64,000 bases of DNA from Phycisphaerae bacterium (GTDB lineage: Bacteria; Planctomycetota; Phycisphaerae; UBA1845). The notes below the pieces were generated by a model that was given only the letters and a program-made list of their open reading frames with translations, did no database searches and had not been told where the DNA came from. Where the stretch lies: positions 174,170 to 238,169 of the forward strand of contig JAJVHU010000010.1 in NCBI GenBank assembly GCA_022072505.1, given 5' to 3'. This document shows positions 29,980-64,000 of this stretch, one piece after another. Within the stretch, counting starts at the first letter, position 1. Each line of letters opens with the position of its first letter. Both the position numbers and the translations under genes were made by a program.

Positions 29980-30213
29980 ACGTCCTTGACCGGATCTGCG
30001 AGGTCCGCGAATTCGCGGCGGCGACGATCCGCGTCTTGGCGCCTCGACCCCTCCTCTGAAAGCGCGCCCGCCGGCGCCTCCCGCCGGACTTCGGGGGACT
30101 TTCCCTGCCCGTTCCGGTAAGATAGACGGCGCCTCCGGGGGAGACCGGGCCGACGGCGCCCGGCGTTCGTGGCGGCGCCCGCGCGACCGGGCAAACAAGG
30201 GGAGGAGACTCGG

Positions 30214-48615: not shown

Positions 48616-49845
48616 TCAGCGCCGCGCTCCGAGTTCGGCGGCGAGGCGCAGAAACCCCGCCGCGTCCGCCTCCGACATTTCGATCCCGCGCCGCGACATC
48701 ATTTTTCGCGCGATGTCGAGCAGCTTCCGAGGGTCTCCGGCGCGCATTCCGTCGCCCGTCAGCCACGAAAAGGGCGGCACGTACGACGGCAGCAGGCCTC
48801 CCGTCGCCGCCACCGCCGCAAAGTCCAACACCGCGCCGGTCGGCAGCAGCGTGCCGATGCCCGTCTTGACGTGATCGGCGATCACCGCGCCGAAGAACAT
48901 CTGACCGGTGTCGATCTCGTCGCCGCTGCGCCGGACACGCACCGTGCCGTAAGTGTTCTTCAGGTCCGAGTTGGTCGTCCCCGCGCCGAGATTGACCCAG
49001 CTCCCGATCCAGGAATGACCGAGAAAGCCCGCGTGCTGCTTGTTCGAGAATCCCTGGAAGATGCACCCGTCGATCTCGCCGCCCAGCTTGCACACCGGTC
49101 CGACCGCATTCGCGCCGTGAAGCCACGTGTGAGGATTGATGCGCGACCCGCGCCCGATGTAAGCCGGACCTTCAAGGATCGCGTAAGCGCCGACACGGAC
49201 GCCGCGCTCGATCAGGATCGGTCCGTCGGTCGCGTCCAACGTACACGGCCCCTGAAACGCGCAGTCCGCCGCGATGTGCGTCCGCGCCGGCTTCACGATC
49301 GTCACGCCGCGGCGCGAACGCGCGGTCGGCCTGCGTCGGCTGAAGGACAGCGCCTCAACCAGATCGTTTTTCAGCGAGGCGATCATATCCCACGGATGTC
49401 GGATCATGCGCCCGGCGGCTTCGATCCGGGGAAGATGCGCGACGGCGTGCATCAACGCCTCTCCCCGCCCTTCCGCGACGATCGTCTCGAACTCCGATGC
49501 GGCGCGGTCGTCCAACCGGGCGTGCGCCAGTTCGCCGTCACGGTGCGCGACGTGCGCGTCACGCGGCAGGGCGACGCGCCCGTCAGGCCGCCACCGGGCG
49601 TTGATGACCAGATCGCCGGCGCGCGTCCGCGGATTGATCGGCCGGAGATCGCGCGTCGCCGTCGCGTCCGCCAGCGCCAACCGGACGCACACCCCCGTCG
49701 CCCGGACTTGAAGCAGGCGTTCGAGTCGCTCGAGAACCGTCTCCGGTCCGACGCGGATTTCGTGAACGGCGCGGGCCCGGGTCAGCGGCGACAGCGCCTC
49801 CGCCCCCCTGTCCTCGAACACGATGCAACCTGACGCTTTCTTCAC
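48616..49845 (-). CDS. GlmU-like putative sugar nucleotidyltransferase with a left-handed beta-helix
   Basis: N-terminal IVFEDRGAEALSPLT. C-terminal hexapeptide repeats. An alternative GTG at 49929 would overlap the upstream stop (GTGA). Confidence 0.65.
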   Translation of the reverse strand: MKKASGCIVFEDRGAEALSPLTRARAVHEIRVGPETVLERLERLLQVRATGVCVRLALADATATRDLRPINPRTRAGDLVINARWRPDGRVALPRDAHVAHRDGELAHARLDDRAASEFETIVAEGRGEALMHAVAHLPRIEAAGRMIRHPWDMIASLKNDLVEALSFSRRRPTARSRRGVTIVKPARTHIAADCAFQGPCTLDATDGPILIERGVRVGAYAILEGPAYIGRGSRINPHTWLHGANAVGPVCKLGGEIDGCIFQGFSNKQHAGFLGHSWIGSWVNLGAGTTNSDLKNTYGTVRVRRSGDEIDTGQMFFGAVIADHVKTGIGTLLPTGAVLDFAAVAATGGLLPSYVPPFSWLTGDGMRAGDPRKLLDIARKMMSRRGIEMSEADAAGFLRLAAELGARR

Positions 49846-49925
49846 GCCCGAACCCCCGCGCCCACGAGTCTGTGCCGGCTCACGCGCGCCGCCGTCCCCG
49901 GACACGGCGCGCCGCCCCGCGCCCC

Positions 49926-50705
49926 TCACACTCGGATCACCTGACCGTCGTACGCAAGCTGCTGGTGCGTCGGCAGCGAGGCGTTTGTCTCCGCATGAGG
50001 CAGATCGTGCGCCATGTGCGTAAAATACGCCTGCTCGGCGCCAATCCGGTCCGCCGTCTCCAGCGCCTGCTCCAGCGTGAAATGCGTCGGATGAGGCCTG
50101 CGGCGCAGCGCATCCAGGATCAGCACCCGCACGCCGCGAAGCCGGTCAAAGCCCTCCGGCGGGATGCGGTTGCAATCCGTGCAGTACGCGAACGCCCCGA
50201 ACCGGAACCCCAGCACCGGCATCTCCCCGTGATAGAGCGGAACCGTCGTCACTTCAACGTCCCCGAGGGCGAACGTCGAGCCTTCGATCGGCCTCAGCGA
50301 CAGGTCCGGCTTGCTCGACTGCGTCTGAAGGTGAGGGTCGAACGCATAAGGGAACATCCGCTCGATCCGCTCCAGCGTCCGCGGCATGCCGAAACAGGGC
50401 AGCTCCCGCTTCATCAGCCAGTTGAACCGCCGAAGGTCGTCCAGACCGACGACGTGATCCGCATGATGATGCGTGAAAAGCACGGCGTCCACCGCGTCGA
50501 TCCGGTTCGCCAGGCATTGCAGGCGCAGTTCCGGGCTGGTGTCGATGAGCAAGCGCGCCCCGCGCCATCGCACCACGATGCTGCACCGCGTGCGCCGGTC
50601 GCGCGGGTCGTCCGACGTACACACCGCGCAGGCGCACCCGATCATCGGAACGCCGTGCGACGTCCCGGTTCCCAGCACCACGACTTCAACGTCATCCCGC
50701 CCCAC
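49926..50705 (-). CDS. MBL-fold metallo-hydrolase (PhnP-like)
   Basis: VVVLGTGTSHGVP...CAVC... and the HxHxDH motif FTHHHADHV. Confidence 0.85.
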   Translation of the reverse strand: MGRDDVEVVVLGTGTSHGVPMIGCACAVCTSDDPRDRRTRCSIVVRWRGARLLIDTSPELRLQCLANRIDAVDAVLFTHHHADHVVGLDDLRRFNWLMKRELPCFGMPRTLERIERMFPYAFDPHLQTQSSKPDLSLRPIEGSTFALGDVEVTTVPLYHGEMPVLGFRFGAFAYCTDCNRIPPEGFDRLRGVRVLILDALRRRPHPTHFTLEQALETADRIGAEQAYFTHMAHDLPHAETNASLPTHQQLAYDGQVIRV

Positions 50706-50752: not shown

Positions 50753-52312
50753 TCAGACCCCGGCGTCCTTAAGAAACCGCTGAAACTCCGGATCCCGCAC
50801 CAGCACCTCGCGCCCCACCCGGATCAACTCGTCCACGTCCCACGGCGGCAGACTCAGCCGCGTCGGCATGTTCAGGCACCGCTCGCGCTGCAGGTCATCC
50901 TCGATCGCCTGAAAATGCACGTGCGCCACGTAGGCGTCCGTCGGCGGCAGCAGAAACTCCGCCGGCGGCGCTGCGTCCGGACACGCCCCCTGAAACGCCT
51001 CGAGGCAGCGCGCGTACGCCTCGCGCATCTCCGCCGACCCCGACACCAGCAGACGCGCCATCCGCACCAGCGTCTCGTTGTGATTCTCGATGCCGGTGAC
51101 CGCCGTCTTGTACCCGATCGTCAGCAGCCCCGGCGACGCCGCCTGGCGCTCGATCGCCTCCTTCGGACGATGCCCGGCGTCCACCACGATGATCAGCAGG
51201 CGACGGATCCGCCCCTCCTGAATGCGCCGGCGGATGTAACCGTGCTGGTATTCCTGAATCACGTGCGTCAGACCGAGATTGTCGCACAACCCGCCGTCCA
51301 CGACGTAACAGAAACGGTGATCAGACTCGTCCAACTCGCAGCGCACGCCGTCCGGCGTCGCCCGAAACCGCGTGATCGACTTCGCCCACGCCTGACGCCG
51401 CGCGTCCGCGAGGCGGGCTTCCGGCGAGTTCACCAGCTCCGACAGCACGTCGCACCCCTCCGCCTGCGGAAAATACCGCAGACGCATCGGGCTGAACACG
51501 ATCGGAAACGCCGACGACGCCGCCACCGCGTAGCCCAGCGGCAACGCCCCCAGATCTGAACCCAGCACGTCGAAATCCGCCTGCGTGAACTCGAACCCGC
51601 GCCCCAGCGCCAGGTTCGTCGCGTTGATCACCAGGTAAGGCCGCGAACCGCGCTCCAGCAGATTCCGGTAACGGACTTCGTCGAACACGCGACGGTCGTA
51701 GTAATCCGCCGCCACGTCCACCGTGTCCAGCAGGATGAAAGGCAGCAGAAAAAAGTTGCGCGGCGCCAGCAGGTGCCCGATCAGTCCGCTCTCAAGGTCG
51801 CGCTGCAGGACACGCTGCTCGTAACGCCCGTCGAACATGGCGTCCCCCCACGTCCCGAACGCCGCCGACGTGAACGAGCCCCCCGAGACGCTGGAGATGA
51901 CGTCGACGTCGTCCAGCAGGCGGCGCGGCGCGCAGGCGTCATTGCCGACATGCACCAGCGTCGCCGCCAGTTCCTGCATCACGCCGTAAGACAGCGCCGC
52001 CGCCCGCAGCCCCCCGCCGGAAAACGTCAGGCATACGAAAAGCTCGTCGCCGTTGTCCCCCGTGTCCGCGGCCAGCGCGTCGAAGCGGTAGCCCGCCGTC
52101 GGGTCGGCCAGCTCAAGACGGGAGTTGTGATACGCCGGCGCGATGCAGCCGGATGCTCCACCCGCCGCGATCAGCAGCAGACATCGCGCCCGCGCGAGCC
52201 TCGGGGGCGGCAAAGACTGCGATGCCCGCCGGACGGTTCGGAACGCCTCAGCAAGGTGACGCACGACAGGATGCACGCCGGAGGTTGTAACTTCCCGCCG
52301 TCGGTATTCCAA
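50753..52312 (-). CDS. Patatin-like phospholipase
   Basis: Oxyanion motif FSGGGLRAA. Nucleophile motif SSVSGGS. Catalytic Asp region DGGLCDNLG. Lipoprotein-like N-terminus. Confidence 0.85.
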   Translation of the reverse strand: MEYRRREVTTSGVHPVVRHLAEAFRTVRRASQSLPPPRLARARCLLLIAAGGASGCIAPAYHNSRLELADPTAGYRFDALAADTGDNGDELFVCLTFSGGGLRAAALSYGVMQELAATLVHVGNDACAPRRLLDDVDVISSVSGGSFTSAAFGTWGDAMFDGRYEQRVLQRDLESGLIGHLLAPRNFFLLPFILLDTVDVAADYYDRRVFDEVRYRNLLERGSRPYLVINATNLALGRGFEFTQADFDVLGSDLGALPLGYAVAASSAFPIVFSPMRLRYFPQAEGCDVLSELVNSPEARLADARRQAWAKSITRFRATPDGVRCELDESDHRFCYVVDGGLCDNLGLTHVIQEYQHGYIRRRIQEGRIRRLLIIVVDAGHRPKEAIERQAASPGLLTIGYKTAVTGIENHNETLVRMARLLVSGSAEMREAYARCLEAFQGACPDAAPPAEFLLPPTDAYVAHVHFQAIEDDLQRERCLNMPTRLSLPPWDVDELIRVGREVLVRDPEFQRFLKDAGV

Positions 52313-52365: not shown

Positions 52366-53685
52366 TCAGCGGCGGATCAGCGCGGGCTCGATCCAGTTCA
52401 GCCGGTCGCCGATGTCGCCGTTGTCGCCGAAGTCCACGATGAGTTGAAGCTGCGCGGTTGCGGAAGGCTCGCCGGACGCGCCTTCCGCGCCACCCGCTTT
52501 GCGCCCCCCTCGCAACTCGACCCGGACCGGTCCGTAAAGGCGCCCCGGGCGAACGTGATCCTGCGAGTGCCGCACCGCGCCGTCCACGACGATCCGGACG
52601 GACACGTCCCCCTCCGGCGCCGCGCTGTCGTCAATGCCGAACGACGTCACGAAGTTCTCGTAGACGCCGCCGCCCAGATCGAACGTCAACACGGACCGGC
52701 TTTGCACCCCGATCCCCTCCGAATACTCCCGCCCGCCGACGCGCAGTACCCCGCCGACCACGTTGCATCCGCGGCGGTGAGGCCGATCCAGGTTCAGCAT
52801 CGGCACATGCGTGGCGCTGATCGGCTCCAGTTCGTCCAGCGGCTGCCAGCGACCGCCGACAACGCTCACCGACGCGATCCGCCCCGCGTCAAAACGAACT
52901 TCCTCTCCGAACGTCGTCAGCCCCCGCGCCACGCCCTGCTCCAGCATGAACGTTTCCAGCGTCAGCCTTCCTGACGCGCGAAGCTCAGCACGAAAATGAG
53001 GCCGCGGCGCCGGCGCGGGACGTTCTCCCGCCAGCCGGATCCCAAGAAAAACGTCCTTCGCAATGCGCTGCGGACCGGCCGAACCCTCCAGCACGAGCGC
53101 CTCATGATCCAGCCGCGACATGAACCCGCTCACCGAGTCCCCGTTGGACAGCAGCACTACGTCGTCCGTCGCCTCGGATCGCTCCAGCGCCGCGACGCGA
53201 TCCGACAACGCCCCCTCCGTCGCCTCCGGCGTCAGGATCAGACCGATCGCCTCCACCGGAATCCGGATCGGTCCCAGATCCCGCGTGTCCAGCAGGATCG
53301 ACTGCTCGACCGCCTCGGTCAGCCAGCCGCAGACCTCATCCCCGTTCTGCAGCCGGATCCGCCACCCGCGCGCGCGTTCTCCCTCCCCGCCGACGCCGAA
53401 CGCGACGGAGACGATATCCGCCGTCGCGATCGACCGCCTCGTTCCGTCGCCCAGCGCCACCGTCGCCCCCGAGCGAGGATCAAACGAAACGACGCGCGCC
53501 GCCGACAGCTCCCCTTCAACCGTCCGGACGACGGCCGGCGGCGAGCCCGAGACGTCCGCCGATTGCACGATCGCCGTCGCCCTCGGACCGGACATCCACG
53601 CCGCGCACGCCGCACACGCGGCCGCACCGCGAAACCCTCGCGGAAACCCGATCGAACACCGGCCCTTGTTCTTCATCACGTTCAT
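52366..53685 (-). CDS. Secreted NPCBM/NEW2-domain protein
   Basis: C-terminal GGREYSEGIGVQSRSVLTFDLGG.YENFVTSFGIDD...VSVRIVVDG...LQLIVDFGDNGDIGDRLNWIEPALI matches the NPCBM pattern. Confidence 0.6.
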   Translation of the reverse strand: MNVMKNKGRCSIGFPRGFRGAAACAACAAWMSGPRATAIVQSADVSGSPPAVVRTVEGELSAARVVSFDPRSGATVALGDGTRRSIATADIVSVAFGVGGEGERARGWRIRLQNGDEVCGWLTEAVEQSILLDTRDLGPIRIPVEAIGLILTPEATEGALSDRVAALERSEATDDVVLLSNGDSVSGFMSRLDHEALVLEGSAGPQRIAKDVFLGIRLAGERPAPAPRPHFRAELRASGRLTLETFMLEQGVARGLTTFGEEVRFDAGRIASVSVVGGRWQPLDELEPISATHVPMLNLDRPHRRGCNVVGGVLRVGGREYSEGIGVQSRSVLTFDLGGGVYENFVTSFGIDDSAAPEGDVSVRIVVDGAVRHSQDHVRPGRLYGPVRVELRGGRKAGGAEGASGEPSATAQLQLIVDFGDNGDIGDRLNWIEPALIRR

Positions 53686-54761
53686 TTCTGAAGGATCGGC
53701 AGAAGACGGTTCGGCATCTGAAGCACGATCAGCCCCATCGCCGTCCCGTATTCCGTCCCCGCCTGCCCGCGCCAGTACCCTTCCTCGGCCTGCGTCGCGA
53801 TCAGCTCGTCGCGGATCGCCGGGAACCAGCGCCCCCAGTGCTCGTCGCCCGCCAGGTACATCGCCTGCGCCGCGTAATAATGCCCGTAAAAATAATGACC
53901 GACGGACTCGCTCTTCGGCGGCGTGAAACGTTCAAGATAACGCAGTCCGCGCTCGATCTCGTCCCCCTCGTAAATCCCCGCGTACTGCAGCGCGCATACC
54001 CCCGCCGCCGACCGCGCGAACGCCGATCCGCCCGAGTTCAGCATATATCGGAACCCGCCGTCGTCGTTCTGGCTGTCCCGGACGTACTGGATCGCACGGT
54101 CGATCACCGACTTCTCAACGTGGATCCCCGCGTTCCGCGCCGCCCGCAGCGCCATCACCTGGCAGATCGTCACCGAAATGTCCGCGTCGTTCCGCACCGG
54201 CTGATACCGCCAGCCCCCCTCGTCGTTCTGCGTCGCCACGATCAGGCGCACCGCGCGGCGCAACGCCTCGCGCACCTCCGGCCTCGGCGACATGCCGTAA
54301 ACCTCCGCCAGAAACAGCGTCGCGAAACCGTGACCGTACATCGGCCCGTGTGACGTGTCCGCCGCCAGCAGCCCGCTCTCCGATCCGTGCTTCAGGATGA
54401 AATCCACGCAGCGATCGACCTGCGGTGCGTAACGACCGCGCCCCGGAACGTTCCCGTCCATGATGAACGCCAGTCCCGCAAGTCCCGTGATCGCCACGTG
54501 AGGTCCGTAGTGCGACAGGCTGCCGAAGCTTCCGTCCGCCGACTGATTATCCGCCAGCCACCGCAGCCCGCGCTCGACCGAAGTGCGCCACGCCGGCGTC
54601 AGCTCCCACTCCGCTGAGGGCGCGCCGCGCGACGCATCCGGCGGCGACGGCGCAACGGTCGCGGGCGGCGTCGCCTCCTGCAATCCGCCGCCAGCTGCAA
54701 AGCTCAGCGCCGCAACCGTCGCCCCCGTAATCGCGGCACAAGGCTTGAACCCTCGGGTCAT
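53682..54761 (-). CDS. Prenyltransferase/squalene-oxidase-repeat (terpenoid-cyclase-fold) protein
   Basis: Repeats ADNQSADGSFG, TQNDEGGWRY and SQNDDGGFRY. ATGA overlaps at both ends. Confidence 0.7.
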   Translation of the reverse strand: MTRGFKPCAAITGATVAALSFAAGGGLQEATPPATVAPSPPDASRGAPSAEWELTPAWRTSVERGLRWLADNQSADGSFGSLSHYGPHVAITGLAGLAFIMDGNVPGRGRYAPQVDRCVDFILKHGSESGLLAADTSHGPMYGHGFATLFLAEVYGMSPRPEVREALRRAVRLIVATQNDEGGWRYQPVRNDADISVTICQVMALRAARNAGIHVEKSVIDRAIQYVRDSQNDDGGFRYMLNSGGSAFARSAAGVCALQYAGIYEGDEIERGLRYLERFTPPKSESVGHYFYGHYYAAQAMYLAGDEHWGRWFPAIRDELIATQAEEGYWRGQAGTEYGTAMGLIVLQMPNRLLPILQK

Positions 54762-55480
54762 CGGTTCTCATCCTCCGGTCCGCCCTGCAGCGACCGGTAA
54801 TACCGCTCCACCCACTCCCGGAACCGCGGCAGCACCGCCTCGTCCATCCCCTCGATCACCTCGTCCCGGTCGCGCTGCGGAAGGTTTCCCCACGCTCGCC
54901 GGCGCTCCTTCAATTCCACGTCGCGGTCCCGCTCCACGCCGTCGCCTCCGGGCGCCGGCGTCGCGTCCTGCCCGGGTTCGCTCGAAGCCTCGGCTGAACG
55001 CGGCTCCGCGCCGGGCTGGCGCGATCCGTCAGGCCGGGCGCGCGACGCCGTCCGACGATCCGAACGAGAGGCGTTCGACTGCGGCTTGCGCTTTGTGTTC
55101 TGCGCCGCCGCCGCGATCGCCTTGTCCAGCTCCTTGATGATTTCTTTCTGAAGCGCCTGCGTCTCCGCGCCGGCGTCGAACATCACCTCAAGCCGGCGCG
55201 CCCCCTCCGACATCATGCGCATGATCTTCGTCATCAGGTCGTCTTCGCCTTCGCCCGTCGTCTGACGCACGAGTTTGCGCGCGAGGTCTTCCTCCTCTTG
55301 CGCCTGCACGGCGCCGCCGACGGGCGCGATGAAAACCAGCGCCACGGCGGCTGCCGCCAACGCCGCGCCGCCCCCGACCGAACCGCGCCCGCAAGGAAGC
55401 CGTCCCGCCGAGCTCGGCCTGCGCCGCTTCCGGGAAAACGCCGGGACGCTCACCTTCATATTCTCACCCGTCAACGTCAT
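54758..55480 (-). CDS. Hypothetical secreted or membrane-anchored charged protein
   Basis: TM/signal segment GGGAALAAAAVALVFIAPVGGAVQA, then an acidic/basic low-complexity region, ending FREWVERYYRSLQ. Start is either 55480 or 55459. Confidence 0.45.
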   Translation of the reverse strand: MTLTGENMKVSVPAFSRKRRRPSSAGRLPCGRGSVGGGAALAAAAVALVFIAPVGGAVQAQEEEDLARKLVRQTTGEGEDDLMTKIMRMMSEGARRLEVMFDAGAETQALQKEIIKELDKAIAAAAQNTKRKPQSNASRSDRRTASRARPDGSRQPGAEPRSAEASSEPGQDATPAPGGDGVERDRDVELKERRRAWGNLPQRDRDEVIEGMDEAVLPRFREWVERYYRSLQGGPEDENR

Positions 55481-55562
55481 GTTCCGCTTCCCTCGTCGCA
55501 ACGCGCTGTTTCCGACGGCCGCTGCCGCCGCACCGGATTCTAGGCCGGCCGGAACGCGATCC

Positions 55563-58500
55563 TCATCCTCCGGCGACGCCCTGCTCCTCACGCGCCGCCT
55601 CCGTCACACGCCGCGTCAGATCGAACACCTGCGCCTGATCTTCTCCCAGCTCCCGCAACCGGCGCAACTCGGCTTCGCCCGGCTCACGCCCCGCCAGTTC
55701 CGCCGCCAGCGCGACCGTCCGCTCGTTGATCTCGATCTGAATCGCTTTCAGCACCAGCAACTCAGTCACCGTCGGAACAGGCTTTCCCGCCTGTTGCTGC
55801 GAAGCCCCGTCGCCGCCGCCTCCTCGTCCGTCATCGTCCGCGAACTCGGGATCCTTGATCGCGTCTTGCGTGCCGGCGAGCCCCGCGATCAACGTCTCCA
55901 GCTCCCGCACGATCCGTCCCGAGACGCGCTCCAGCTCCCCGTCGATCGCCCGGCGCGTCAGACGATCCTGCGCTCCCTCCATCCAACCCACGACGCGCTG
56001 CAACGCCCACGCAAAAACCGGCGCTTCTTCGACCTGTGCTTGCGCTTCCTGCGTCGCCTTCACCAGCTCGCCCTGGTCTCGCGCCAGGTCCGACGCCGCT
56101 TTCGACTCAAGGCGCCCGATCCGCTGGCCCTGCGACAACCGAGCCGCCAGATCGCGGATCCCGGCGTCGATCTCCCGCTGCGCCGCCACCAGCGCCTCCA
56201 GCCGACCCTGAATCTCTTCCAGCGTCTGCCTCTCGATGTCGTCTCGAACCTGCTCCGCCGCTTCCGCCAGGGCGTCCAGCGCCTGATGCAGAAAATCCTC
56301 CGCGGTCTGCTGCGGCGTCTTCGCATCCGCCGCGCGGGCTTCGCCCAGAACGCGGTGCGCCTCGCTCATCGCCGCTGCCGCCGCGCTGACCAATTCCCCC
56401 GCAGGCGCGGATTTCGGCGTCGCCCCGAGATCCTCTCCCAGCCACCGCGCGTTCGTCCGAAGCTGCCCTTGCGGCTCCGCCAGCGCCGCCACCACGTCCG
56501 AAGGCGCGGCGACTGCCGCCGCCTCCTCCGCCGCCGCCGTCAGCTCCTCCTGACGCCTCAAAAGCGCCGCCACCTGCTCTTCCGCGCGCTCCAGCTCTTT
56601 CCGCAACTCGTCCAGCTCGCGCTTCCGCGCCTCGCGCAGTCCCGCGACCATCTTCGACATCGCGTCCTTCGCCGCGGACTGACTCACGCCCGCCGCCGCC
56701 GTCCGGTTCCCGCGCACCGCCTCCGCCGCCGTCTTCAGATGCCGCGGAAGATCCTGCGCCGCCGCCTCGCGCAACGCCTGCTCCAGCGACTCCCGCGCCG
56801 CCGCCTCAACGCTTCCGGCGCTCTGATCGCGCATCTGCGCCAGCGCTTTGTTCACGTCGTCGTTGAGTTGCTCCTGTTGCCGCGCCAGGCGCTCCAGTTC
56901 CGCCTGCTCCTCCGCCGTCAGCGACTCCACCGCGCGCCCGAGCGTCTCCTTCCCCGCCGCCGCCGTCGCATCCCGAAGCGCCTCCTGCCGCTCAACAAGA
57001 TCCGTCAGCCGTGACGCCAGTTCCTGAACGTCGCCCCACCGCGAAAGCTCTTCCAGCACCCCCCGCAGGTTCGCCGACGCCTCCGCTGCTCCTCGTCTCG
57101 CCTCCGCCGCCAACGATCTCGCCTCGTCCGCCGGCTCCGCATCCCGAGCCTGCTGAAGCGCCCCGGAGGCGCCACTCATCCGATCCGCCACCTCGCCCGC
57201 CAGCCGATCCGCGACGTCCCGCACCCGCTGCGCCCAGCCCTCGTCTTCCACCCGGTTGTCGCTCATCTGACCGGCCAGATCGCGCGAGCGACGCACGAGA
57301 TCGCGGACCGACCGAGCCAGCCGCGCCTCGCGAGACGCCGCCGAAGCCGCTGCATCTCGCTCCGCCTCTGACCAGTCCGCCGTCTCCGCCAGCGCCTCCG
57401 CCGACTCCGTCACGCCGTCCTGCTCCGCCAGCACCTGGCGCAACTGGCGCTCGATCCCGTGCAACTGATCGCGCACGCGGCGCTCATACTCCGCCGCGCT
57501 GATGATCCGCAGGGTCAGCGACGCGGAGCGCCCCGGACGTTCCGGACCCGCCTCGCCCGGGAACGTGTCCCACGCCGCCACGCAGAACGTCGCCACGTCT
57601 CCCGGTTCCAGCGCCAGGCGCGCCAGATCCCAGTCATGACGGAACGTCGCGCTTCCCCGAACGCCTCCGGCTGCTCCCCCCTCCAACGTCACCGGTTCCG
57701 ACAACGTTGCGCGGTCTTCGCGCGTCGCCTCCAGCGCCGCTGCGGACACGCCGAAGTCGTCCACCGCCTCCCCCACGAGCCGGAGGATCGCCTGCGGCGT
57801 CGCCTCCACAGCGCCCGCCGGGTGCGTCAACGCCACCCGAGGCGGCATGTCTTCTTTCATCTTCAGCGTGTAAAGCGCTGCCGTGCGGTTCTCGAACCCG
57901 TCCTCGTCCACCACCGTCACGCGGAACTGAACGTCCGCTTGCGGCTCAAAGGTCGCCCGCAACCGGCGCCGATCGTCCGGGTCCGCAGTCAGCGGTGTCG
58001 TCCAGCCGTCCGCGGAGTGAAGCTGCATCCGGTCCGCCCCCGCGCCGCGCGCCGCGTCCTTGCTGCTCGTCACAACCACCTCGACCCGGCTCCCCCGGAT
58101 CACATCCACCGCTTCCGTCGTCAGCGTCAGAATTTCCGGCCCCGCCCCGTCCGCGTACGCCGGCGGATACACCGTCAGGGCCACCTCCTCGATCACCGGG
58201 CGTGCGACCGCGACGATCCGACCCGGCTCGCGTCGCGTGCTGGCGTCGCCGGCCTCGAAGTGATAACTCACGTCGCACAGAACCGGCTGGATCACCGCCT
58301 CGAATACGTCTCCTTCCCGCTGCATCGCCAGCGTCATCGCCCGCCCTTCCGCATCCCGCAGGTGAACGACGCCGCGCAGCGTGTCCGAAAGTCCCGTCGT
58401 CACTTTCATCCGAACTCGAGCGGACTCCGCCAGCGGCGCGCGGATCACCCGCGTCAGGGGTGAAATCTGCACCGTCGTCGGCCACTCCACCGCCCCGAAC

Positions 58501-59054
58501 GGATCCAGATAGCGCGACAGCCCCGTCCACATCCACGCCGGCGATCCGAGGCTCACCGCCGCCAGCAGGACGACGCTGAGGATGAAGAACAACGTCCCCG
58601 TCAGCAGCGGACGCGTCGTCAACACACGCTCAAGGTCTCGCCGCGCGATCGCCCGCTCCGTGTTCACCAGGAACTGCCGCACCATCGGCGCCGACCCCGC
58701 CTCCACGTTCTGCGCGAAGTTCACCAGGCTCGACAACCGGTCATTGAAATCCCCGAAATAACGCTCGATCCGCGCCGCAATCTGCCCGACGCTCAGCCCC
58801 GCCCGCGCCGGACGGTAGATCCAGTACGTCCACGCCAGCGCAAACCCGACCAGAAACGCCCCCCCGATCACCAGCCGAGGGATCGCGGGAAGATTCAGAC
58901 CCCAGTCCACCAGCAGGATCGCCAGCAGCGCGTACACCCCCCCGGACCCCACCGCCGTGACCCCGTAAAGGATCCACCGCCGGTAAGCGATCCGCCGGAT
59001 GCGCTCCAACCGCGCGATCAGTTCCCGACTCTGCTCGCTCTCCAGCATCGACAT
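55563..59054 (-). CDS. Large DUF4175-like membrane protein with a long Ala/Glu-rich coiled-coil C-terminal half
   Basis: N-terminal pair of TM helices (ILYGVTAVGSGGVYALLAILLV..., PRLVIGGAFLVGFALAWTYWIY), a third TM helix, then about 500 aa of coiled-coil-like sequence. Confidence 0.6.
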   Translation of the reverse strand: MSMLESEQSRELIARLERIRRIAYRRWILYGVTAVGSGGVYALLAILLVDWGLNLPAIPRLVIGGAFLVGFALAWTYWIYRPARAGLSVGQIAARIERYFGDFNDRLSSLVNFAQNVEAGSAPMVRQFLVNTERAIARRDLERVLTTRPLLTGTLFFILSVVLLAAVSLGSPAWMWTGLSRYLDPFGAVEWPTTVQISPLTRVIRAPLAESARVRMKVTTGLSDTLRGVVHLRDAEGRAMTLAMQREGDVFEAVIQPVLCDVSYHFEAGDASTRREPGRIVAVARPVIEEVALTVYPPAYADGAGPEILTLTTEAVDVIRGSRVEVVVTSSKDAARGAGADRMQLHSADGWTTPLTADPDDRRRLRATFEPQADVQFRVTVVDEDGFENRTAALYTLKMKEDMPPRVALTHPAGAVEATPQAILRLVGEAVDDFGVSAAALEATREDRATLSEPVTLEGGAAGGVRGSATFRHDWDLARLALEPGDVATFCVAAWDTFPGEAGPERPGRSASLTLRIISAAEYERRVRDQLHGIERQLRQVLAEQDGVTESAEALAETADWSEAERDAAASAASREARLARSVRDLVRRSRDLAGQMSDNRVEDEGWAQRVRDVADRLAGEVADRMSGASGALQQARDAEPADEARSLAAEARRGAAEASANLRGVLEELSRWGDVQELASRLTDLVERQEALRDATAAAGKETLGRAVESLTAEEQAELERLARQQEQLNDDVNKALAQMRDQSAGSVEAAARESLEQALREAAAQDLPRHLKTAAEAVRGNRTAAAGVSQSAAKDAMSKMVAGLREARKRELDELRKELERAEEQVAALLRRQEELTAAAEEAAAVAAPSDVVAALAEPQGQLRTNARWLGEDLGATPKSAPAGELVSAAAAAMSEAHRVLGEARAADAKTPQQTAEDFLHQALDALAEAAEQVRDDIERQTLEEIQGRLEALVAAQREIDAGIRDLAARLSQGQRIGRLESKAASDLARDQGELVKATQEAQAQVEEAPVFAWALQRVVGWMEGAQDRLTRRAIDGELERVSGRIVRELETLIAGLAGTQDAIKDPEFADDDGRGGGGDGASQQQAGKPVPTVTELLVLKAIQIEINERTVALAAELAGREPGEAELRRLRELGEDQAQVFDLTRRVTEAAREEQGVAGG

Positions 59055-59100
59055 CCGCGATCCCCCGGTCGTCCGCCTTCCGCGTCACCGCCCGCCCGGT

Positions 59101-59145
59101 CCCTGTTCCCTGTTGCCTGTTGCCTGTTCCCTGTTGCCTGTTGCC
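59101..59145. repeat. Heptamer tandem repeat (SCCTGTT x 6.4) in an intra-operon spacer
   Basis: ccctgtt ccctgtt gcctgtt gcctgtt ccctgtt gcctgtt gcc, read directly from the sequence. Confidence 0.95.
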
Positions 59146-59148
59146 TTC

Positions 59149-61611
59149 CTACACCAGCCCGAACGCCTTCCGCGTCACCCACTCCGCCGTAATCAGCAGC
59201 ACAAAAAGCAGCGCCGCCAGCCGCGAATCCCACAGCGGCTCCGTCACGTCATCCGGAATCTGCACACTCCGGTCGCGGATCTTCGACAACCCGCCCGCCA
59301 CGTCCTCCAGTTCGATCATGCTCCCGCCCGTGCCCGCCGCCAACTGCTCCAGCAACTCATGATTCGCCTCCGCCCGTCTCGACTCCAGGTCCAGCGCCTC
59401 CACCTGAAACGTTGTCGAGATCGCCCGCTCCGGGACGAACCCCGTCGCCTCGACCTCCAGCAACAGGCTCCCCGGCCGGTCCGCGATGCGCGATCCGAGG
59501 AACACGTTGGACCGCTCGTCAACCCGCCGCAGCTCAAACCGCATCGCCGCGCGCCCCTCTCCGTCCACGCCCCGCACCGTCAGCGCATCCCCCAGTGCCG
59601 AAGACAACTCGGGATCCAACACACGCGCTTCAACCCCGACGCGCTCCCCCAGGGAGTAACGCCGACGATCCGTCGTCACCGTCATCCGACGATCCTGCCC
59701 GAGGCGACGGTCCGGCATCAGCGAACGCGCCACTTGGATCCAGTACGCGTCGTGAAGGAACTCCCCCGTGTGACGGCGCCACAACCACGTGTCATCCGTC
59801 CCCTGAAAGAAGAGCTTCCCCGCCCCGTAACGACCCGACACCACCAGCGGCATCGCCCCCGATCCTGCCGTCGCCGTCGGATGCTCCAGCAGCACCGTCG
59901 CCCCCGGTTTCGGACCCAGCGATCGCGCGTACCAGTGCCACGACGGAAGTTCCCCGATCAGCCTCGCGTTCTCCTCGGGATCAGGCACGAACCGGAACAG
60001 GCGGCTCGCGCGCCCTTCCGGCGTCAGCCGTCCGCGGTATCCGGTGGTGATCGTTCCTCCCGGACCGCCCGACGCATCCGCGTCGATCCGCACCGGAACG
60101 AGTCGCTCAAGCGGCGTCCCAAGAAAACGACCCGGCGTATACCGCTCCCCCGCGATCAGACCGAACCCGCCGCCCTGGTTCCCCACGAAATCCAGCAGCA
60201 TCCGCATCTGCGCCAGGCTCAGCCAGTTGCCTCGCGCGTCCACGTCGCCGAAGATCACCACGTCATAAGGGTTCAGTTCCTCCGGCGTCTCAGGGAACCT
60301 CTGGATCGGCAGCGTCCCTTCCTGAACGAAGCCATCGTCGGCCTCCAGCAGTAGCACGCTGACCTTCACGGTCCGCTCCCGAACCAACGCCGTCTTCAGG
60401 TACCGGTATTCGTAGCGCGGATACGTGTCGACATAGAGCACGTTGAGCTGCTCATCCAGTACCGTCACGTCGAAGCGCTCCGTGTTGTTCGACAACTCCT
60501 GCTCCGCCGCCGGACCCGTCACCTCCACCCGGAACCGGCGCACGCCGCGATCACGAAGCCGGGTGCTTAACTCGACCTCATGCGCCCCCGATCCGCCCTC
60601 ATCCGCGGAGAGAGCGACCGACGTCTCCGCCAGCACCGCGTTCGTCGCGTCGTCAAGGAGCCGCACCCGAGCCGTCTCCGTCGCCGCCAGCCCGCTCCAC
60701 CGCAGGCTGATGTCCGCCGCGAGCACGTCATCCGCGAACACCGTCTGCGGCGTCCGGATCGCGTCCAGCCCCACGTCCGCCACCGGCTGCGGCGATCCGA
60801 CGCGCACCGGGTAAACCGGCGCCTGCCGCGCCTGCGCCGACTGAAGCAGCTCGAACAAGTCCACCGGCGTCGTCGACTGACCGTCGCTGACCAGAACGAT
60901 CCCCGCAATGCGCCGTTCCGGATCCGCCGCCAGCAGCGCCTGAAGCGCCCCTACCACGTCCGAATTCCCGCCCTCCGGCGTCACATCTCTCAGCCCCGCC
61001 GCGACCTCCGTCGCCGACTCAGGCGATCCCGGCGGGCTCGCCTCCCGCAAGGCCGACGCAAAAGCATAAAGTCGCAACCGGTTTCCGGGCGGCAGGGATC
61101 CTCGTAACACCGCCGCGTCATCCTTCAGCAGCGCCGCTCGCGCCAGATCCAGCCGCGACAACTCCGGCGCACCCTCGGTCGCAGGGCTGTCCGCCTCGGT
61201 TTCCGCCGCGCGATCCTCAGACTCAGTTCCACGCCGCCGGTCCACGCGCGACATGCTGCGCGACTCATCCACCAGCAGGATCACTTCCGACGGCTCGACC
61301 CGATTGCGCTGAAGCTTCAGAGTCGGGCGGCACAGTAGCGCCCCGACCAGCGCCACCAGCCCCAGCCGCAACCCTCCGAGCAGCGTCCGACGCAGCACGG
61401 ACCCGCGCTCACGACGGTAGACCAGCGCCACGCACGCCGCCGCCGCCAACCCCAGCGCGGACAGCACCCACGCCTCCACCGGAACGTCCCACGTCAACCG
61501 CAGGGGCGCATCCCGGCCGAGCCGTATCCGCTCCAGATCCAGCAACCACTCCAGCGCGCGTTCCACCATCGTCACTCGACCGCCGCCGTCAGACCACCGG
61601 CGACGCTTCAA
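59149..61611 (-). CDS. Membrane protein with a vWA-like domain and a class-I glutamine-amidotransferase-like domain
   Basis: TM helices near the N-terminus. MIDAS-like VILLVDESRSMS. VVIFGDVDARGNWLSLAQMRMLLDFVGNQGGGFGLIAG. C-terminal TM helix. Alternative start at 61569. Confidence 0.65.
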   Translation of the reverse strand: MKRRRWSDGGGRVTMVERALEWLLDLERIRLGRDAPLRLTWDVPVEAWVLSALGLAAAACVALVYRRERGSVLRRTLLGGLRLGLVALVGALLCRPTLKLQRNRVEPSEVILLVDESRSMSRVDRRRGTESEDRAAETEADSPATEGAPELSRLDLARAALLKDDAAVLRGSLPPGNRLRLYAFASALREASPPGSPESATEVAAGLRDVTPEGGNSDVVGALQALLAADPERRIAGIVLVSDGQSTTPVDLFELLQSAQARQAPVYPVRVGSPQPVADVGLDAIRTPQTVFADDVLAADISLRWSGLAATETARVRLLDDATNAVLAETSVALSADEGGSGAHEVELSTRLRDRGVRRFRVEVTGPAAEQELSNNTERFDVTVLDEQLNVLYVDTYPRYEYRYLKTALVRERTVKVSVLLLEADDGFVQEGTLPIQRFPETPEELNPYDVVIFGDVDARGNWLSLAQMRMLLDFVGNQGGGFGLIAGERYTPGRFLGTPLERLVPVRIDADASGGPGGTITTGYRGRLTPEGRASRLFRFVPDPEENARLIGELPSWHWYARSLGPKPGATVLLEHPTATAGSGAMPLVVSGRYGAGKLFFQGTDDTWLWRRHTGEFLHDAYWIQVARSLMPDRRLGQDRRMTVTTDRRRYSLGERVGVEARVLDPELSSALGDALTVRGVDGEGRAAMRFELRRVDERSNVFLGSRIADRPGSLLLEVEATGFVPERAISTTFQVEALDLESRRAEANHELLEQLAAGTGGSMIELEDVAGGLSKIRDRSVQIPDDVTEPLWDSRLAALLFVLLITAEWVTRKAFGLV

Positions 61612-61627
61612 TCATCCCACGTTCCGC

Positions 61628-63835
61628 TCACCCGCTCGCAGCCCCGTCGCGCCCGCCGCTGGCCGCCCCCGCGAGGATCGGCTCCACCAGCAGCAGTCCC
61701 AGCACGATCAGCAGCACCGTCAGATTCAACTCCGTCGCCTGCGCCGTCCGCCCCTGTCCGGCGCCTGATTCCGCTTCATCCTCCAGCACACGCGCCAAGC
61801 CCCCCGTCCGCTCCGCCACCACCGCAGCCTCCGTCACCCCCGGGTCCGACTCCCGCGCCGGAACGTTCACCGCGAAATCCAACGACCGCTCGCCCGACTG
61901 AAACCGGTAGATGCCCGGGTCCGCCGCCGGTCCCGCGCGAAACGTCAACGACCCGTCCGCCCCCTGCGCCACGGATCCCGCCAGCGTTCCGCCCGACGGC
62001 GCGATCAACCGGACCGGAAGGTCCACGTCCTGCGGCTCGATCGGCTCGACGATCGACGACCCGGTTTCAACCGTGCGGTGGCTCCCCGGACGTCCGCACA
62101 ACATCGACACCGCCTCGACCACCACCGAGACGAAGTCGCCTTTTGCGGGAAAATTCGTCCACTCCATGTTGGCCGATGTCGTGAACATCGCCGAGGTTCC
62201 GCGGCCCACCGACTGAATGACCAGCGCCGGATCGCCGGTGAGGTACTTCAGGACGACCCGCGACCCGTCCGCCGCCGGCACGATCGGCAGATAACGCTCG
62301 ACCCGCGCGCTGAAAAGACCGCTGTCCCGCAGCGACGCGAACTCCGCGACCAGCGGATGCACCGGTTCCGCCAGCGTCATCGTCGTCCACCCCTCCTCGC
62401 CTCCCGCCGGGCGCACCGCGTCCCCCAGCGTTCCCGGGAGGATCGCGGGCTCCGTCCCCGCCCCGTGCCGGTTGTAATGCTCAACCGAAACCTGATCCCC
62501 GGCGAACACCAGCAGCCCGCCGCCCGCGCCGACGTACTCCGCCAGCCGTCGCCACTCCCGCTCCGGCAGGCGTCCGACGTTGCACAGCACGATGACCGCG
62601 TAATCCCGCAGCGACTCTGCCGGGAGTTCGCTGTCGCTGACGACTTTCGGGTCGAACACGCCCGACCCCACGCTCGACTCGTCCGCGGGCGAAAGCGCCT
62701 TCTGCACGTACCCCGCGTGCCCGTCCATCCGATCGACCCCGGGATCGCCGTCCACCAGAAGCACGGGCGCCTGACGAATCACTTCAACCGACAGGAACGC
62801 CTGATCATCTGCCGCCAGCGCCCCACCCGCCGCACCAGCCAGTTCCGCGCGCAAGCCGTGCGTGCCCGCCTCGTGGAACGTGATGAAACCGTCCTGCGAC
62901 GCCGATCCGCCGGCGGGAACGGACTCGAACTCGAACGTCAGGAGGCGCCGTTCCCGATCGGTCACGTGCACGCTCACATCACGCGCCGCGCGAACCCCGT
63001 AATTCACCACCTCCGCCTCAATCCGCGTTGGAAACCCCGTCGCCGTCAGCGGCGTCAACGAGGTCAGTCGGCACACCGCCGTGTTCGACGAACCCCGCTC
63101 CGCCGCTGGGATCAGCACCAGGTCAACCTCCCCCGCGAGCCGTCGCGCCTCGTTCAGCGCCTGCCCGCCGATTTCGGCGGCCTCCCAGTCCGCCCGAGCG
63201 AAGTCGCTGACCACGTACACCGTCGTGTTCGCCTTCAGGATCGACGCATCCGCCGTCAGATCCCACGCCGAGGACAGCGCCGCCTCCCAGTCCGCCGCCA
63301 GGTACGTCGGCCGGACCTGCCGCAGACGATCCTCGAATGCCAACACCCCCACCCCCTCCCGCGACGCCGCACCGCCCCCCGCCGACGTCGTCACGAGGTG
63401 GAACACGTCGTTTTCGCCGAACCCCGGCAGCAAGGCACGAATCCGCCCGAGCGCCGCGTCGAAGCGCGTCTCGTCTCCCCCCGCCCGCGTCTGCATCGAC
63501 AGGCTGTCATCCAGAACGAACACGCGACGCGCCCGAGCCCTCTCCCCGGCGACCCCGCCGGCCGACGACAGAAAGGGCCGACCCGCCGCCGCCACCCCCA
63601 GCCCGATCAGCGCCACCCGCAACGCCAGCAGCAGCCACTGCTCGACAAAGAGCCTTCGACGACTCTGCCGCGTCGCCGCCAGCAGGAACGCCATCGCCGC
63701 CCAGACGACGCGCCGGTGCCGACGACGGTTGAGAAGGTGAATCACGATCGGCACGAGCGCCGCCGCGCCCGCCGCCGCCGCGATCGCCGGTTGCACGAAC
63801 CCGAAACTCTGCGCCAGGACCGGCACCGCGATCAT
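61628..63835 (-). CDS. BatA-type protein: N-terminal double-TM aerotolerance-regulator domain plus a vWA-like domain
   Basis: FGFVQPAIAAAAGAAALVPIVIHLLNRRRHRRVVWAAMAFLL. MIDAS-like VFVLDDSLSMQ. VIVLCNVGRLPEREWRRLAEYVGAGGGLLVFAGD. ATG at 63835. Confidence 0.75.
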   Translation of the reverse strand: MIAVPVLAQSFGFVQPAIAAAAGAAALVPIVIHLLNRRRHRRVVWAAMAFLLAATRQSRRRLFVEQWLLLALRVALIGLGVAAAGRPFLSSAGGVAGERARARRVFVLDDSLSMQTRAGGDETRFDAALGRIRALLPGFGENDVFHLVTTSAGGGAASREGVGVLAFEDRLRQVRPTYLAADWEAALSSAWDLTADASILKANTTVYVVSDFARADWEAAEIGGQALNEARRLAGEVDLVLIPAAERGSSNTAVCRLTSLTPLTATGFPTRIEAEVVNYGVRAARDVSVHVTDRERRLLTFEFESVPAGGSASQDGFITFHEAGTHGLRAELAGAAGGALAADDQAFLSVEVIRQAPVLLVDGDPGVDRMDGHAGYVQKALSPADESSVGSGVFDPKVVSDSELPAESLRDYAVIVLCNVGRLPEREWRRLAEYVGAGGGLLVFAGDQVSVEHYNRHGAGTEPAILPGTLGDAVRPAGGEEGWTTMTLAEPVHPLVAEFASLRDSGLFSARVERYLPIVPAADGSRVVLKYLTGDPALVIQSVGRGTSAMFTTSANMEWTNFPAKGDFVSVVVEAVSMLCGRPGSHRTVETGSSIVEPIEPQDVDLPVRLIAPSGGTLAGSVAQGADGSLTFRAGPAADPGIYRFQSGERSLDFAVNVPARESDPGVTEAAVVAERTGGLARVLEDEAESGAGQGRTAQATELNLTVLLIVLGLLLVEPILAGAASGGRDGAASG

Positions 63836-63999
63836 CCTCCCGTCATCCCCCGCGCCGTCCGCCGGCGCATCCGCGTCGCCCGCGACGCCAGGTACGCGCT
63901 CAGCGCCACGTCCATCGCCGTCGACGTGTCGAACGACACGTAGTCGATCATCATCCGGCTGCATCCGCTCTGAAGCTGCGAGCGGAACCGCTCCACCTC
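63832..63999 (-). CDS. 3' end of an upstream gene, probably DUF58-type; 5' part lies outside the window
   Basis: Open frame from the window edge (...VERFRSQLQSGCSRMMIDYVSFDTSTAMDVALSAYLASRA...) ending in a TGA that overlaps the BatA-like ATG (ATGA). The DUF58 call rests only on the conserved MoxR-DUF58-BatA gene order. Confidence 0.4.
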   Translation of the reverse strand, partial: EVERFRSQLQSGCSRMMIDYVSFDTSTAMDVALSAYLASRATRMRRRTARGMTGG

Positions 64000-64000
64000 C

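Follow-up and report, generated by a model that had tools for sequence, protein, structure and literature searches.

The 64,000-nucleotide (nt) stretch of Phycisphaerae bacterium DNA analyzed here (the window; assembly GCA_022072505.1, contig JAJVHU010000010.1, positions 174,170 to 238,169 of the forward strand) carries at its far end six and a half genes, the distal part of a single eight-gene operon, MoxR-DUF58-BatA-VWA2-Big-Chg-Pren-NPCBM. This operon is conserved in many Planctomycetota, with particularly good sampling of the Phycisphaerae. Operons of the MoxR-DUF58-BatA/vWA type are found in many bacterial phyla and affect aerotolerance, virulence or envelope integrity; to our knowledge, no mechanism has been provided for them since 1999. 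The window has a G+C content of ~68%, and its last 16 kb are coded on the minus strand. An earlier note, made from the letters of this DNA, had listed seven minus-strand genes in this region, and our reading of the open reading frames (ORFs) located all seven at the coordinates it gave (window positions, in the order of transcription):

63832–64000, minus strand: 3' end of DUF58; the gene runs past the window edge, and MoxR lies further upstream
61628–63835, minus strand: BatA, 735 amino acids (aa); BatA_N double-transmembrane anchor, von Willebrand factor A (vWA) domain, large periplasmic region and C-terminal transmembrane helix
59149–61611, minus strand: VWA2; three transmembrane helices, a periplasmic vWA domain and a region related to GATase1-like proteins
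55563–59054, minus strand: Big, a 1163-aa membrane protein, DUF4175-related
54758–55480, minus strand: Chg, 240 aa; secreted, of no described family
53682–54761, minus strand: Pren, 359 aa; a secreted single-domain (alpha/alpha)6 toroid with QW-type repeats
52366–53685, minus strand: NPCBM protein, 439 aa; signal peptide, four beta modules and a C-terminal CBM51/NPCBM domain

Gene junctions within the operon

The three ATGA start/stop overlaps claimed in the earlier note were all present when read directly from the sequence. The DUF58 protein ends in ...SAYLASRATRMRRRTARGMTGG, and the TGA that follows overlaps the ATG of BatA at 63832–63835; the Chg/Pren overlap lies at 54758–54761, with GGAGGA 10 nt upstream, and the Pren/NPCBM overlap lies at 53682–53685. 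The gaps at the remaining junctions are 16–58, 94 (VWA2/Big) and 82 nt. The true start of VWA2 is most likely the ATG at 61569, giving a predicted protein of 806 aa, rather than the TTG at 61611, because the gene call on the identical contig L087 is 806 aa long. The Chg start at 55480 (240 aa) agrees with the database gene call P0139. Promoter-like and terminator-like sites at the junctions did not exceed the expectation from shuffled sequence (0 versus 0.8 and 5 versus 7.2), so that no internal signal above chance separates the genes. Four-base overlaps are frequent in compact operons and therefore carry little weight taken alone. Across ~50–70 orthologous loci, the median junction gaps, with start codons picked heuristically, were -4, 58, 9.5, 5 and -1 nt; short or overlapping junctions recurred among these loci, and no individual overlap was universally kept. 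The stoichiometric co-production and the multiprotein assembly that the earlier note proposed may apply to these genes. Half of the 94-nt VWA2/Big spacer is occupied by a perfect-looking tandem heptamer, AACAGG[C/G] on the coding (minus) strand, with 6.4 copies at 59102–59146. No shuffle reproduced this repeat, and it was not kept in the closest relative, L004, which has an unrelated spacer; for this reason it was set aside as a candidate regulatory element.

Upstream genes and conservation of the gene order

The earlier note had suggested extending the region upstream to find MoxR and the full DUF58 gene, and both are present on the Logan contig L087, whose sequence does not differ from the window end wherever the two overlap and which encodes the exact BatA of the window. 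On this contig, the full DUF58 protein is 315 aa long, matches Pfam DUF58 and VWA_2, contains the motif VVDTSESMS, which resembles a metal ion-dependent adhesion site (MIDAS), and shares a four-base overlap with BatA. It is preceded by the C-terminal half of MoxR, which is 54% identical to the MoxR of Azospirillum. Genes matching AAA_3/bpMoxR were also located upstream of the cluster in L002 and L089, and the DxSxS motif was kept in 24 of 30 DUF58 orthologues. At positions 1–1100 of L001, a gene on the opposite strand occupies the MoxR/DUF58 position beside BatA.

Conservation of the gene order was assessed in one genome per GTDB species by a scan with a Pren alignment, which matched at least 582 places; 80 of these, from species-level Planctomycetota genomes, were retained as loci. 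The counts per gene come from tblastn searches with the window proteins, limited to the loci with enough flanking sequence:

Big, upstream of Pren: found in 60 of 63 loci
VWA2, upstream of Pren: found in 52 of 56 loci
BatA, upstream of Pren: found in 49 of 53 loci
Chg, upstream of Pren: found in 67 of 77 loci
NPCBM-type gene, downstream of Pren: found in at least 41 of 68 loci

By tblastn, DUF58 was detected in 41 of all 80 loci anchored on Pren. Many of the tblastn "misses" for NPCBM carry a divergent ~400-aa ORF after Pren that aligns full length with the NPCBM protein, and three of these ORFs give weak NPCBM matches. Since the loci had been chosen through Pren, two extra loci were fetched through Chg; in both, all eight genes were present in this order, and several junctions were four-base overlaps. 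Two look-ups of encoding contigs returned the same gene order as well. The synteny of the last three genes with the BatA/vWA core, whose absence would have refuted the earlier note by its own account, is thus present in almost every related genome with enough flanking sequence.

The downstream boundary of the conserved block was set at 52366, because the patatin, MBL-fold and NTP_transf_4 genes beyond it are conserved only in the nearest relative; being outside the block, these three genes were rejected as members of the operon. They lie on the minus strand and encode a patatin-like phospholipase (50753–52312), an MBL-fold hydrolase (49926–50705) and a protein resembling NTP_transf_4/hexapeptide sugar nucleotidyltransferases (48616–49929). 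An NTP_transf_4 gene, 35% identical, occurs directly 3' of the cluster in L089, and an MBL-fold gene follows the cluster in L001.

A paralogous copy in a different order was observed on the 81-kb plasmid pPL62-3 of Planctomyces sp. SH-PL62 (NZ_CP011276.1; L084/L085). There, the order is Pren, a gap, DUF58, BatA, VWA, a split Big, a Chg-like gene and a DUF1583-NPCBM fusion. The gap after Pren spans the origin of the record, and its size fits MoxR, which presumably fills it. DUF58 is annotated as two pieces, the two parts of Big have 744 and 542 aa, the Chg-like protein has 182 aa and the fusion protein 912 aa. A search with Big against the plasmid collection yielded no match. The reassembly of the same parts in a new order favors a functional linkage of the genes over an inherited order.

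These patterns bear on the possibility that the last three or four genes are independent neighbors carried along with a Bat-like core. Such a reading can draw on the loci at which NPCBM is missing and on those at which MoxR and DUF58 are detached. It is nevertheless distinctly unlikely, given that the order persists between genomes whose neighboring proteins are only 23–35% identical, that the same parts are regrouped on pPL62-3, and that conservation covers the block and not the genes beyond NPCBM.

Membrane-anchored proteins

Profile searches confirmed the earlier assignment of the gene at 61628–63835 to BatA-N/vWA proteins, with matches of BatA to PF07584 BatA_N (expectation value [E] 4e-13), TIGR02226 (E 1e-16) and VWA_2 (E 1e-4) in Pfam and NCBIfam, along with a weak match to ThuA (E 0.006). 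Its MIDAS motif is DDSLS. Topology, deduced from Kyte-Doolittle hydropathy and the positive-inside rule, places transmembrane helices at residues 14–32, 63–81 and 707–725, with nine Arg/Lys residues in the loop between the first two, and ~620 residues, including the vWA domain, are predicted to face the periplasm. This predicted arrangement is the one determined by experiment for Borrelia BB0173 (PMC5700661). VWA2 follows the same topological plan and has the MIDAS motif DESRS. Of its two domains in the earlier note, vWA was confirmed (VWA_2, E 1e-7), while the GATase1-like part matched Pfam GATase1_like weakly (E 0.1) and is otherwise indicated indirectly, by the blastp alignment of residues 222–671 with a GATase1_like membrane protein of Azospirillum (E 3e-13). 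The DxSxS signature of the MIDAS was kept in 47 of 51 VWA2 orthologues and in 36 of 51 BatA orthologues; the BatA proteins without it include those of L046, L050, L054, L055, L057, L058, L062 and L063. It is possible that function has diverged between these two paralogues.

Big is predicted to have transmembrane helices at residues 31–49, 55–73 and 150–168, followed by ~990 periplasmic residues. These comprise a beta-rich region (~181–520), a helical stretch of ~555 residues, 62% of which are Ala, Glu, Arg, Leu or Gln, a Gly run and a conserved C-terminal motif, VPT.AEL.LLK. The window protein itself matched no DUF4175, Pfam or NCBIfam model (Pfam was scanned to E ≤ 10, and TIGR02302 was likewise not matched). 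Among 22 syntenic orthologues, however, PF13779 DUF4175 was matched by five (best E 3e-11) and Big_7 by three. Because these matches belong to the orthologues, the description "DUF4175-like" of the earlier note is fair for the Big family and is not shown for the protein of the window. Members of the DUF4175/TIGR02302 family resemble Big in having three N-terminal transmembrane helices and then a long extramembrane region that is helical or of low complexity; Big differs from them in its extra Ig-like beta region, to which the Big_7 matches in the three orthologues correspond. In AdvA of Acinetobacter, DUF4175 covers only the N-terminal region, with two transmembrane helices.

Secreted proteins

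Chg, Pren and the NPCBM protein each have a signal peptide. After the signal peptide of Chg come a helical module and a linker of low complexity, and the conserved motif WG.LP.R.R...YYR.L lies at the C-terminus. No Pfam family was found for Chg, at permissive thresholds either, and a scan of 20 orthologues returned scattered chance matches only. Its 155 database relatives are all annotated as "hypothetical," and all the named ones belong to Planctomycetota. The helical module of Chg (~116–169 of the long ORF) resembles residues 1014–1066 of Big (hhalign probability 77%, E 2e-5), and in both proteins this segment precedes a linker of low complexity and then a short, conserved motif at the C-terminus. 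This likeness suggests either a shared origin or a shared mode of docking.

The C-terminal 150 residues of the NPCBM protein matched PF08305 with E 1e-17, above the gathering score, and its AlphaFold2 model (predicted local distance difference test [pLDDT] 81) matched the CBM51 structure 2vmg in Foldseek with a TM-score of 0.82 on the target and a root-mean-square deviation of 2.3 Å. The NPCBM domain proposed in the earlier note is thereby established by both profile and fold, the latter a CBM51 beta-sandwich of the lectin type. Residues 50–276 form four tandem five-stranded beta modules of ~45 residues each with the signature L.NGD..G; no Pfam family was found for these modules, and the whole-chain Foldseek search was dominated by CBM51. 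Known CBM51/NPCBM modules sit in GH95 and GH98 glycosidases and in the M60 peptidase ZmpB. Unlike these enzymes, the NPCBM protein here has no attached catalytic domain.

The terpenoid-cyclase fold that the earlier note assigned to Pren held up, with respect to both the toroid and the QW-type repeats. Pren matched the profiles SQHop_cyclase_C (E 2e-11) and Prenyltrans (E 3e-6) and the squalene-hopene cyclase (SHC) 1gsz (E 5e-12). Its AlphaFold2 model (pLDDT 80) consists of 12 helices in a single domain of ~300 residues. In Foldseek, the model matched many toroid families with TM-scores of 0.55–0.63 and an identity of 13–18% to every solved structure; among the matches were the myxobacterial "SHC" entries 8pak/8paj, AprG, drimenyl diphosphate synthase, GH76, MstE and complement TED. 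Class II cyclases and toroid proteins share with Pren the QW-type repeats and the 12-helix toroid, and 8pak/8paj are of similar size (TM-score 0.6). Pren lacks the DxDD, DxD[ST]T and CxEQ motifs and scored 31–37 bits against the NCBIfam cyclase models, the cut-offs of which are 323–851. Against the Pfam model TED_complement, it reached E 0.009, and the Foldseek matches to C3 and CD109 had TM-scores of ~0.55. As a secreted, single-domain protein without these motifs, Pren is therefore neither a squalene-hopene cyclase nor a thioester protein. The former assignment (class II cyclase) was rejected for want of DxDD/DxD[ST]T and because Pren has one domain in place of the beta-gamma two, and the latter (alpha-2-macroglobulin/complement type) for want of CxEQ. 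A protein prenyltransferase beta subunit was disfavored solely by the absence of an alpha-subunit gene from the operon, which also has no isoprenoid genes.

The locus as a whole is highly unlikely to serve phage defense or another conflict function, as a system of the MoxR-vWA ternary type, or to be a pathway of terpenoid (hopanoid/sterol) cyclization. A conflict system would accord with the secondary matches of the MoxR proteins to the bpMoxR model and with the use of NPCBM as a sensor in some such systems, though the NPCBM proteins in question are intracellular fusions (PMC8195603). Seven proteins of the operon had no PADLOC match at E ≤ 0.001, on which ground the defense reading was rejected; no effector domains were found, and the chromosomal context is of a housekeeping kind with uniform G+C. 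Cyclization would account for the squalene-hopene cyclase profile matches of Pren, and it is opposed by the secretion, single domain and missing motifs described above, as well as by the absence of any isoprenoid gene from the conserved block; a polyprenyl synthase gene occurs in L090 alone, three genes off.

No other gene of the operon is as strongly conserved as Pren. It has more than 8000 database relatives, and the best 120 are 66–95% identical, the named ones among them being Phycisphaerae or Planctomycetota. Identity to the window protein was 54–94% across the 80 species loci and 59–64% in the Chg-anchored loci, as compared with ~46–51% for DUF58. Where its neighbors were 25–36% identical, Pren was ~60–67% identical. 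In an alignment of 18 sequences, more than 120 columns were invariant. The motifs SHYGPH, SHGPMYGHGF, RNDADIS, GHYFYGHYY and GxEYGT, which are likewise invariant, each lie at the N-terminus of alternate helices and, from the order of the helices rather than from coordinates, should be located on one mouth of the modeled toroid. The invariant residues include H84, H88, H138, H144, H289, H294, C200, D192 and D194. The signal peptide of Pren is of the Sec type, without a consistent twin-arginine motif.

This degree of constraint raised the possibility that the operon is a maturation system for Pren, in which MoxR and the vWA proteins load a metal or cofactor or remodel their client, as in NorQ/NorD, CoxD/E/F and CbbQ/O, and Pren is the real enzyme. 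PMC9976466 and PMC13036017 describe MoxR/vWA pairs as typically inserting metals or remodeling a single client; Pren is far more constrained than any other gene, and six invariant His residues together with C200, D192 and D194 would suit a metal or cofactor. On the other hand, the Sec-type signal implies that Pren would be translocated in the unfolded state, at a distance from the cytoplasmic ATPase, while Big, Chg and the lectin protein are left unexplained and the alphaproteobacterial core works without Pren. We consider this explanation unlikely.

The glycan-related folds of the secreted proteins could alternatively reflect a nutritional system for the capture and processing of polysaccharides in the periplasm, in which CBM51 and a glycosidase-like Pren bind and cut glycans and the vWA proteins serve as adhesive scaffolds. 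The CBM51 fold, shared with modules of GH95, GH98 and the M60 peptidase ZmpB, is in keeping with this idea, as are the matches of the Pren model to GH76 mannanases, MmpH and the sugar-binding AprG (TM-score ~0.6) and a GH38 gene elsewhere in the window. By sequence, however, Pren matches QW-repeat cyclases and not glycoside hydrolase families. In the contexts inspected, no transporter, sulfatase or other carbohydrate-active enzyme gene was conserved beside the cluster, and the single copy, near-universal order and high Pren identity look like those of a housekeeping system rather than a substrate-specific one. Glycan foraging is accordingly a rather improbable function for this operon.

Proposed function

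For six of the eight proteins, signal peptides and topology prediction put most of the chain in the periplasm or on the side facing it, which fits the "envelope-associated" reading of the earlier note, and its interpretation is, overall, supported. We tentatively favor an inner-membrane-anchored, MoxR-dependent periplasmic complex that touches envelope glycan and serves the building or maintenance of the envelope, a reading that we regard as almost as likely to be right as wrong. In such a complex, the cytoplasmic AAA+ ATPase MoxR and the soluble vWA-type DUF58 protein would act, by way of Arg-rich loops in the cytoplasm, on BatA and VWA2, the paralogous inner-membrane proteins whose vWA/MIDAS domains would be turned toward the periplasm. 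Big, anchored by its three helices, would reach into the periplasm with its Ig-like module and a helical rod of ~550 residues. The secreted Chg, Pren and CBM51 lectin protein would dock on the scaffold of BatA, VWA2 and Big, and the lectin, together with the strongly constrained pocket face of Pren, would engage envelope glycan or a lipid-linked glycan. The assembly may thereby build or maintain the cell envelope, consistent with the phenotype of the rhizobial core operon.

Several observations weigh against a glycan-directed envelope complex of this composition. With regard to the gene set, the NPCBM gene is apparently missing at L021, L034, L035, L071 and L082; DUF58 had no tblastn match upstream of BatA in L044, L048 and L066; and MoxR and DUF58 lie apart from the other six genes in some genomes, such as L001. 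From this detachment it follows that the six genes from BatA to NPCBM form a tighter unit and that the ATPase can be encoded elsewhere. With regard to the proteins, DxSxS is absent from 15 of 51 BatA orthologues, which belong to a more distant subgroup, and Foldseek does not separate terpene cyclases, GH76, AprG and TED as relatives of Pren. MoxR is cytoplasmic and would have to reach vWA domains that are placed in the periplasm. All support for the planctomycete members is computational.

A bolder version of the envelope complex is an energized periplasmic machine, in which ATP hydrolysis by MoxR/DUF58 would be relayed through the BatA_N modules to the vWA domains and the Big rod, driving or gating the action of Pren, with CBM51, on glycan. 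We regard this version as a long shot. If true, it would constitute a third route, beside Ton/Tol and ABC-type systems, by which cytoplasmic energy reaches the periplasm or outer layers, and it would supply the missing functional explanation of Bat-like systems in general.

The remainder of the window encodes an AddA-like helicase-nuclease, PutA, the GH38 protein, an RDD-family protein, a GFO/IDH/MocA oxidoreductase, a PQQ beta-propeller protein, deoxyhypusine synthase and ThiG. At 30169–32145 on the plus strand, a 658-aa ORF with a G-rich, coding-like strand and a local G+C content of 0.64–0.65 had no Pfam match at E ≤ 1e-5.

Comparison with known Bat-type systems

No description of this planctomycete cluster was found in the literature searched. 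The nearest characterized relative of the operon is the four-gene RL3499-RL3502 type of Alphaproteobacteria and not the TPR-containing BatI of Bacteroides. The "Bat-like" kinship of the earlier note thus stands for MoxR, DUF58 and the BatA_N/vWA proteins and does not extend to the strict BatI set. RL3499-RL3502 of Rhizobium leguminosarum has the composition MoxR-DUF58-BatA_N/DUF4159-GATase1-like and was examined here through the Azospirillum chromid L086, in which MoxR, DUF58, a BatA_N/DUF4159 protein (911 aa) and a GATase1_like protein (699 aa) are followed by a transposon. Shared with the planctomycete operon are an AAA_3 MoxR, a DUF58 protein, a BatA_N protein of 700–900 aa and a second large membrane protein, all in the same order. 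BatA of the window aligned with the BatA_N/DUF4159 protein of Azospirillum (E 2e-11); DUF4159, which the third alphaproteobacterial protein carries, was not detected in the window BatA. The first four genes are shown to be homologous to the alphaproteobacterial four-gene core. Big, Chg, Pren and NPCBM are absent from L086. According to PMC5700661, which cites Vanderlinde et al. (2011), RL3499-RL3502 mutants have envelope and morphology defects, and transposon sequencing indicated that growth on TY medium was impaired for RL3499 and RL3500 (PMC5118466). These defects are the sole phenotype reported for a close relative.

The BatI operon of Bacteroides fragilis and its homologues in Leptospira and Borrelia, bb0170-bb0176 in the latter, share with the present operon MoxR, DUF58 and BatA-type proteins with a periplasm-facing vWA/MIDAS. 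They carry, in addition, the TPR and SH3 proteins BatB-E and BatD; TPR, SH3 and BatD models had no match in the downstream proteins of the window in Pfam or NCBIfam. The Bat name and the annotation of anammox genomes would point to a system for oxygen tolerance or oxidative stress. BatA_N homology agrees with this, bat-like genes of Borrelia respond to oxygen (PMC5700661), and the literature on planctomycetes lists BatA and BatD as "oxygen protection" genes by annotation in Brocadiae metagenome-assembled genomes (PMC8862662). The eight proteins, however, contain no redox domain, thioredoxin fold or heme motif in Pfam or NCBIfam searches, and the TPR-type BatB-E are missing here. Furthermore, the hypothesis of reducing power is unproven in Bacteroides and Leptospira (PMC5700661), and Bat function is experimentally unexplained, the Leptospira bat study stating that no specific function has been demonstrated for these proteins (PMC3557215). 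A role in oxygen tolerance is, in our judgment, very unlikely. The MoxR-vWA-transglutaminase system is a different operon (PMC3495828).

In Gemmatirosa kalamazoonensis, of the Gemmatimonadota, plasmid 1 (L088, 735784–762944) was observed to carry MoxR-DUF58-BatA together with a 787-aa ORF without a family match. Upstream of these genes lie a VWA2-like protein and then a 1166-aa protein with TPR and Peptidase_MA, which makes the locus an intermediate case; Big, Chg, Pren and NPCBM are absent from L088. The accessory genes of the shared core therefore differ by lineage, being of the TPR type in Bacteroides, spirochaetes and Gemmatirosa, lacking in Alphaproteobacteria, and consisting of Big, Chg, Pren and CBM51 in Planctomycetota. 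In the loci compared here, the latter four appear to be additions that occur only in Planctomycetota. A lectin, a toroid, a long helical membrane protein and a small secreted adaptor point to the periplasm as the site, and to glycan as the object, of the activity, and they provide experimental handles on a question that is more than 25 years old. In addition, the operon may serve as a lineage marker for the unusual cell envelope of planctomycetes. Relative to the known systems, in which the core had already been described, what is new is that four genes extend this core and that Pren is exceptionally conserved.

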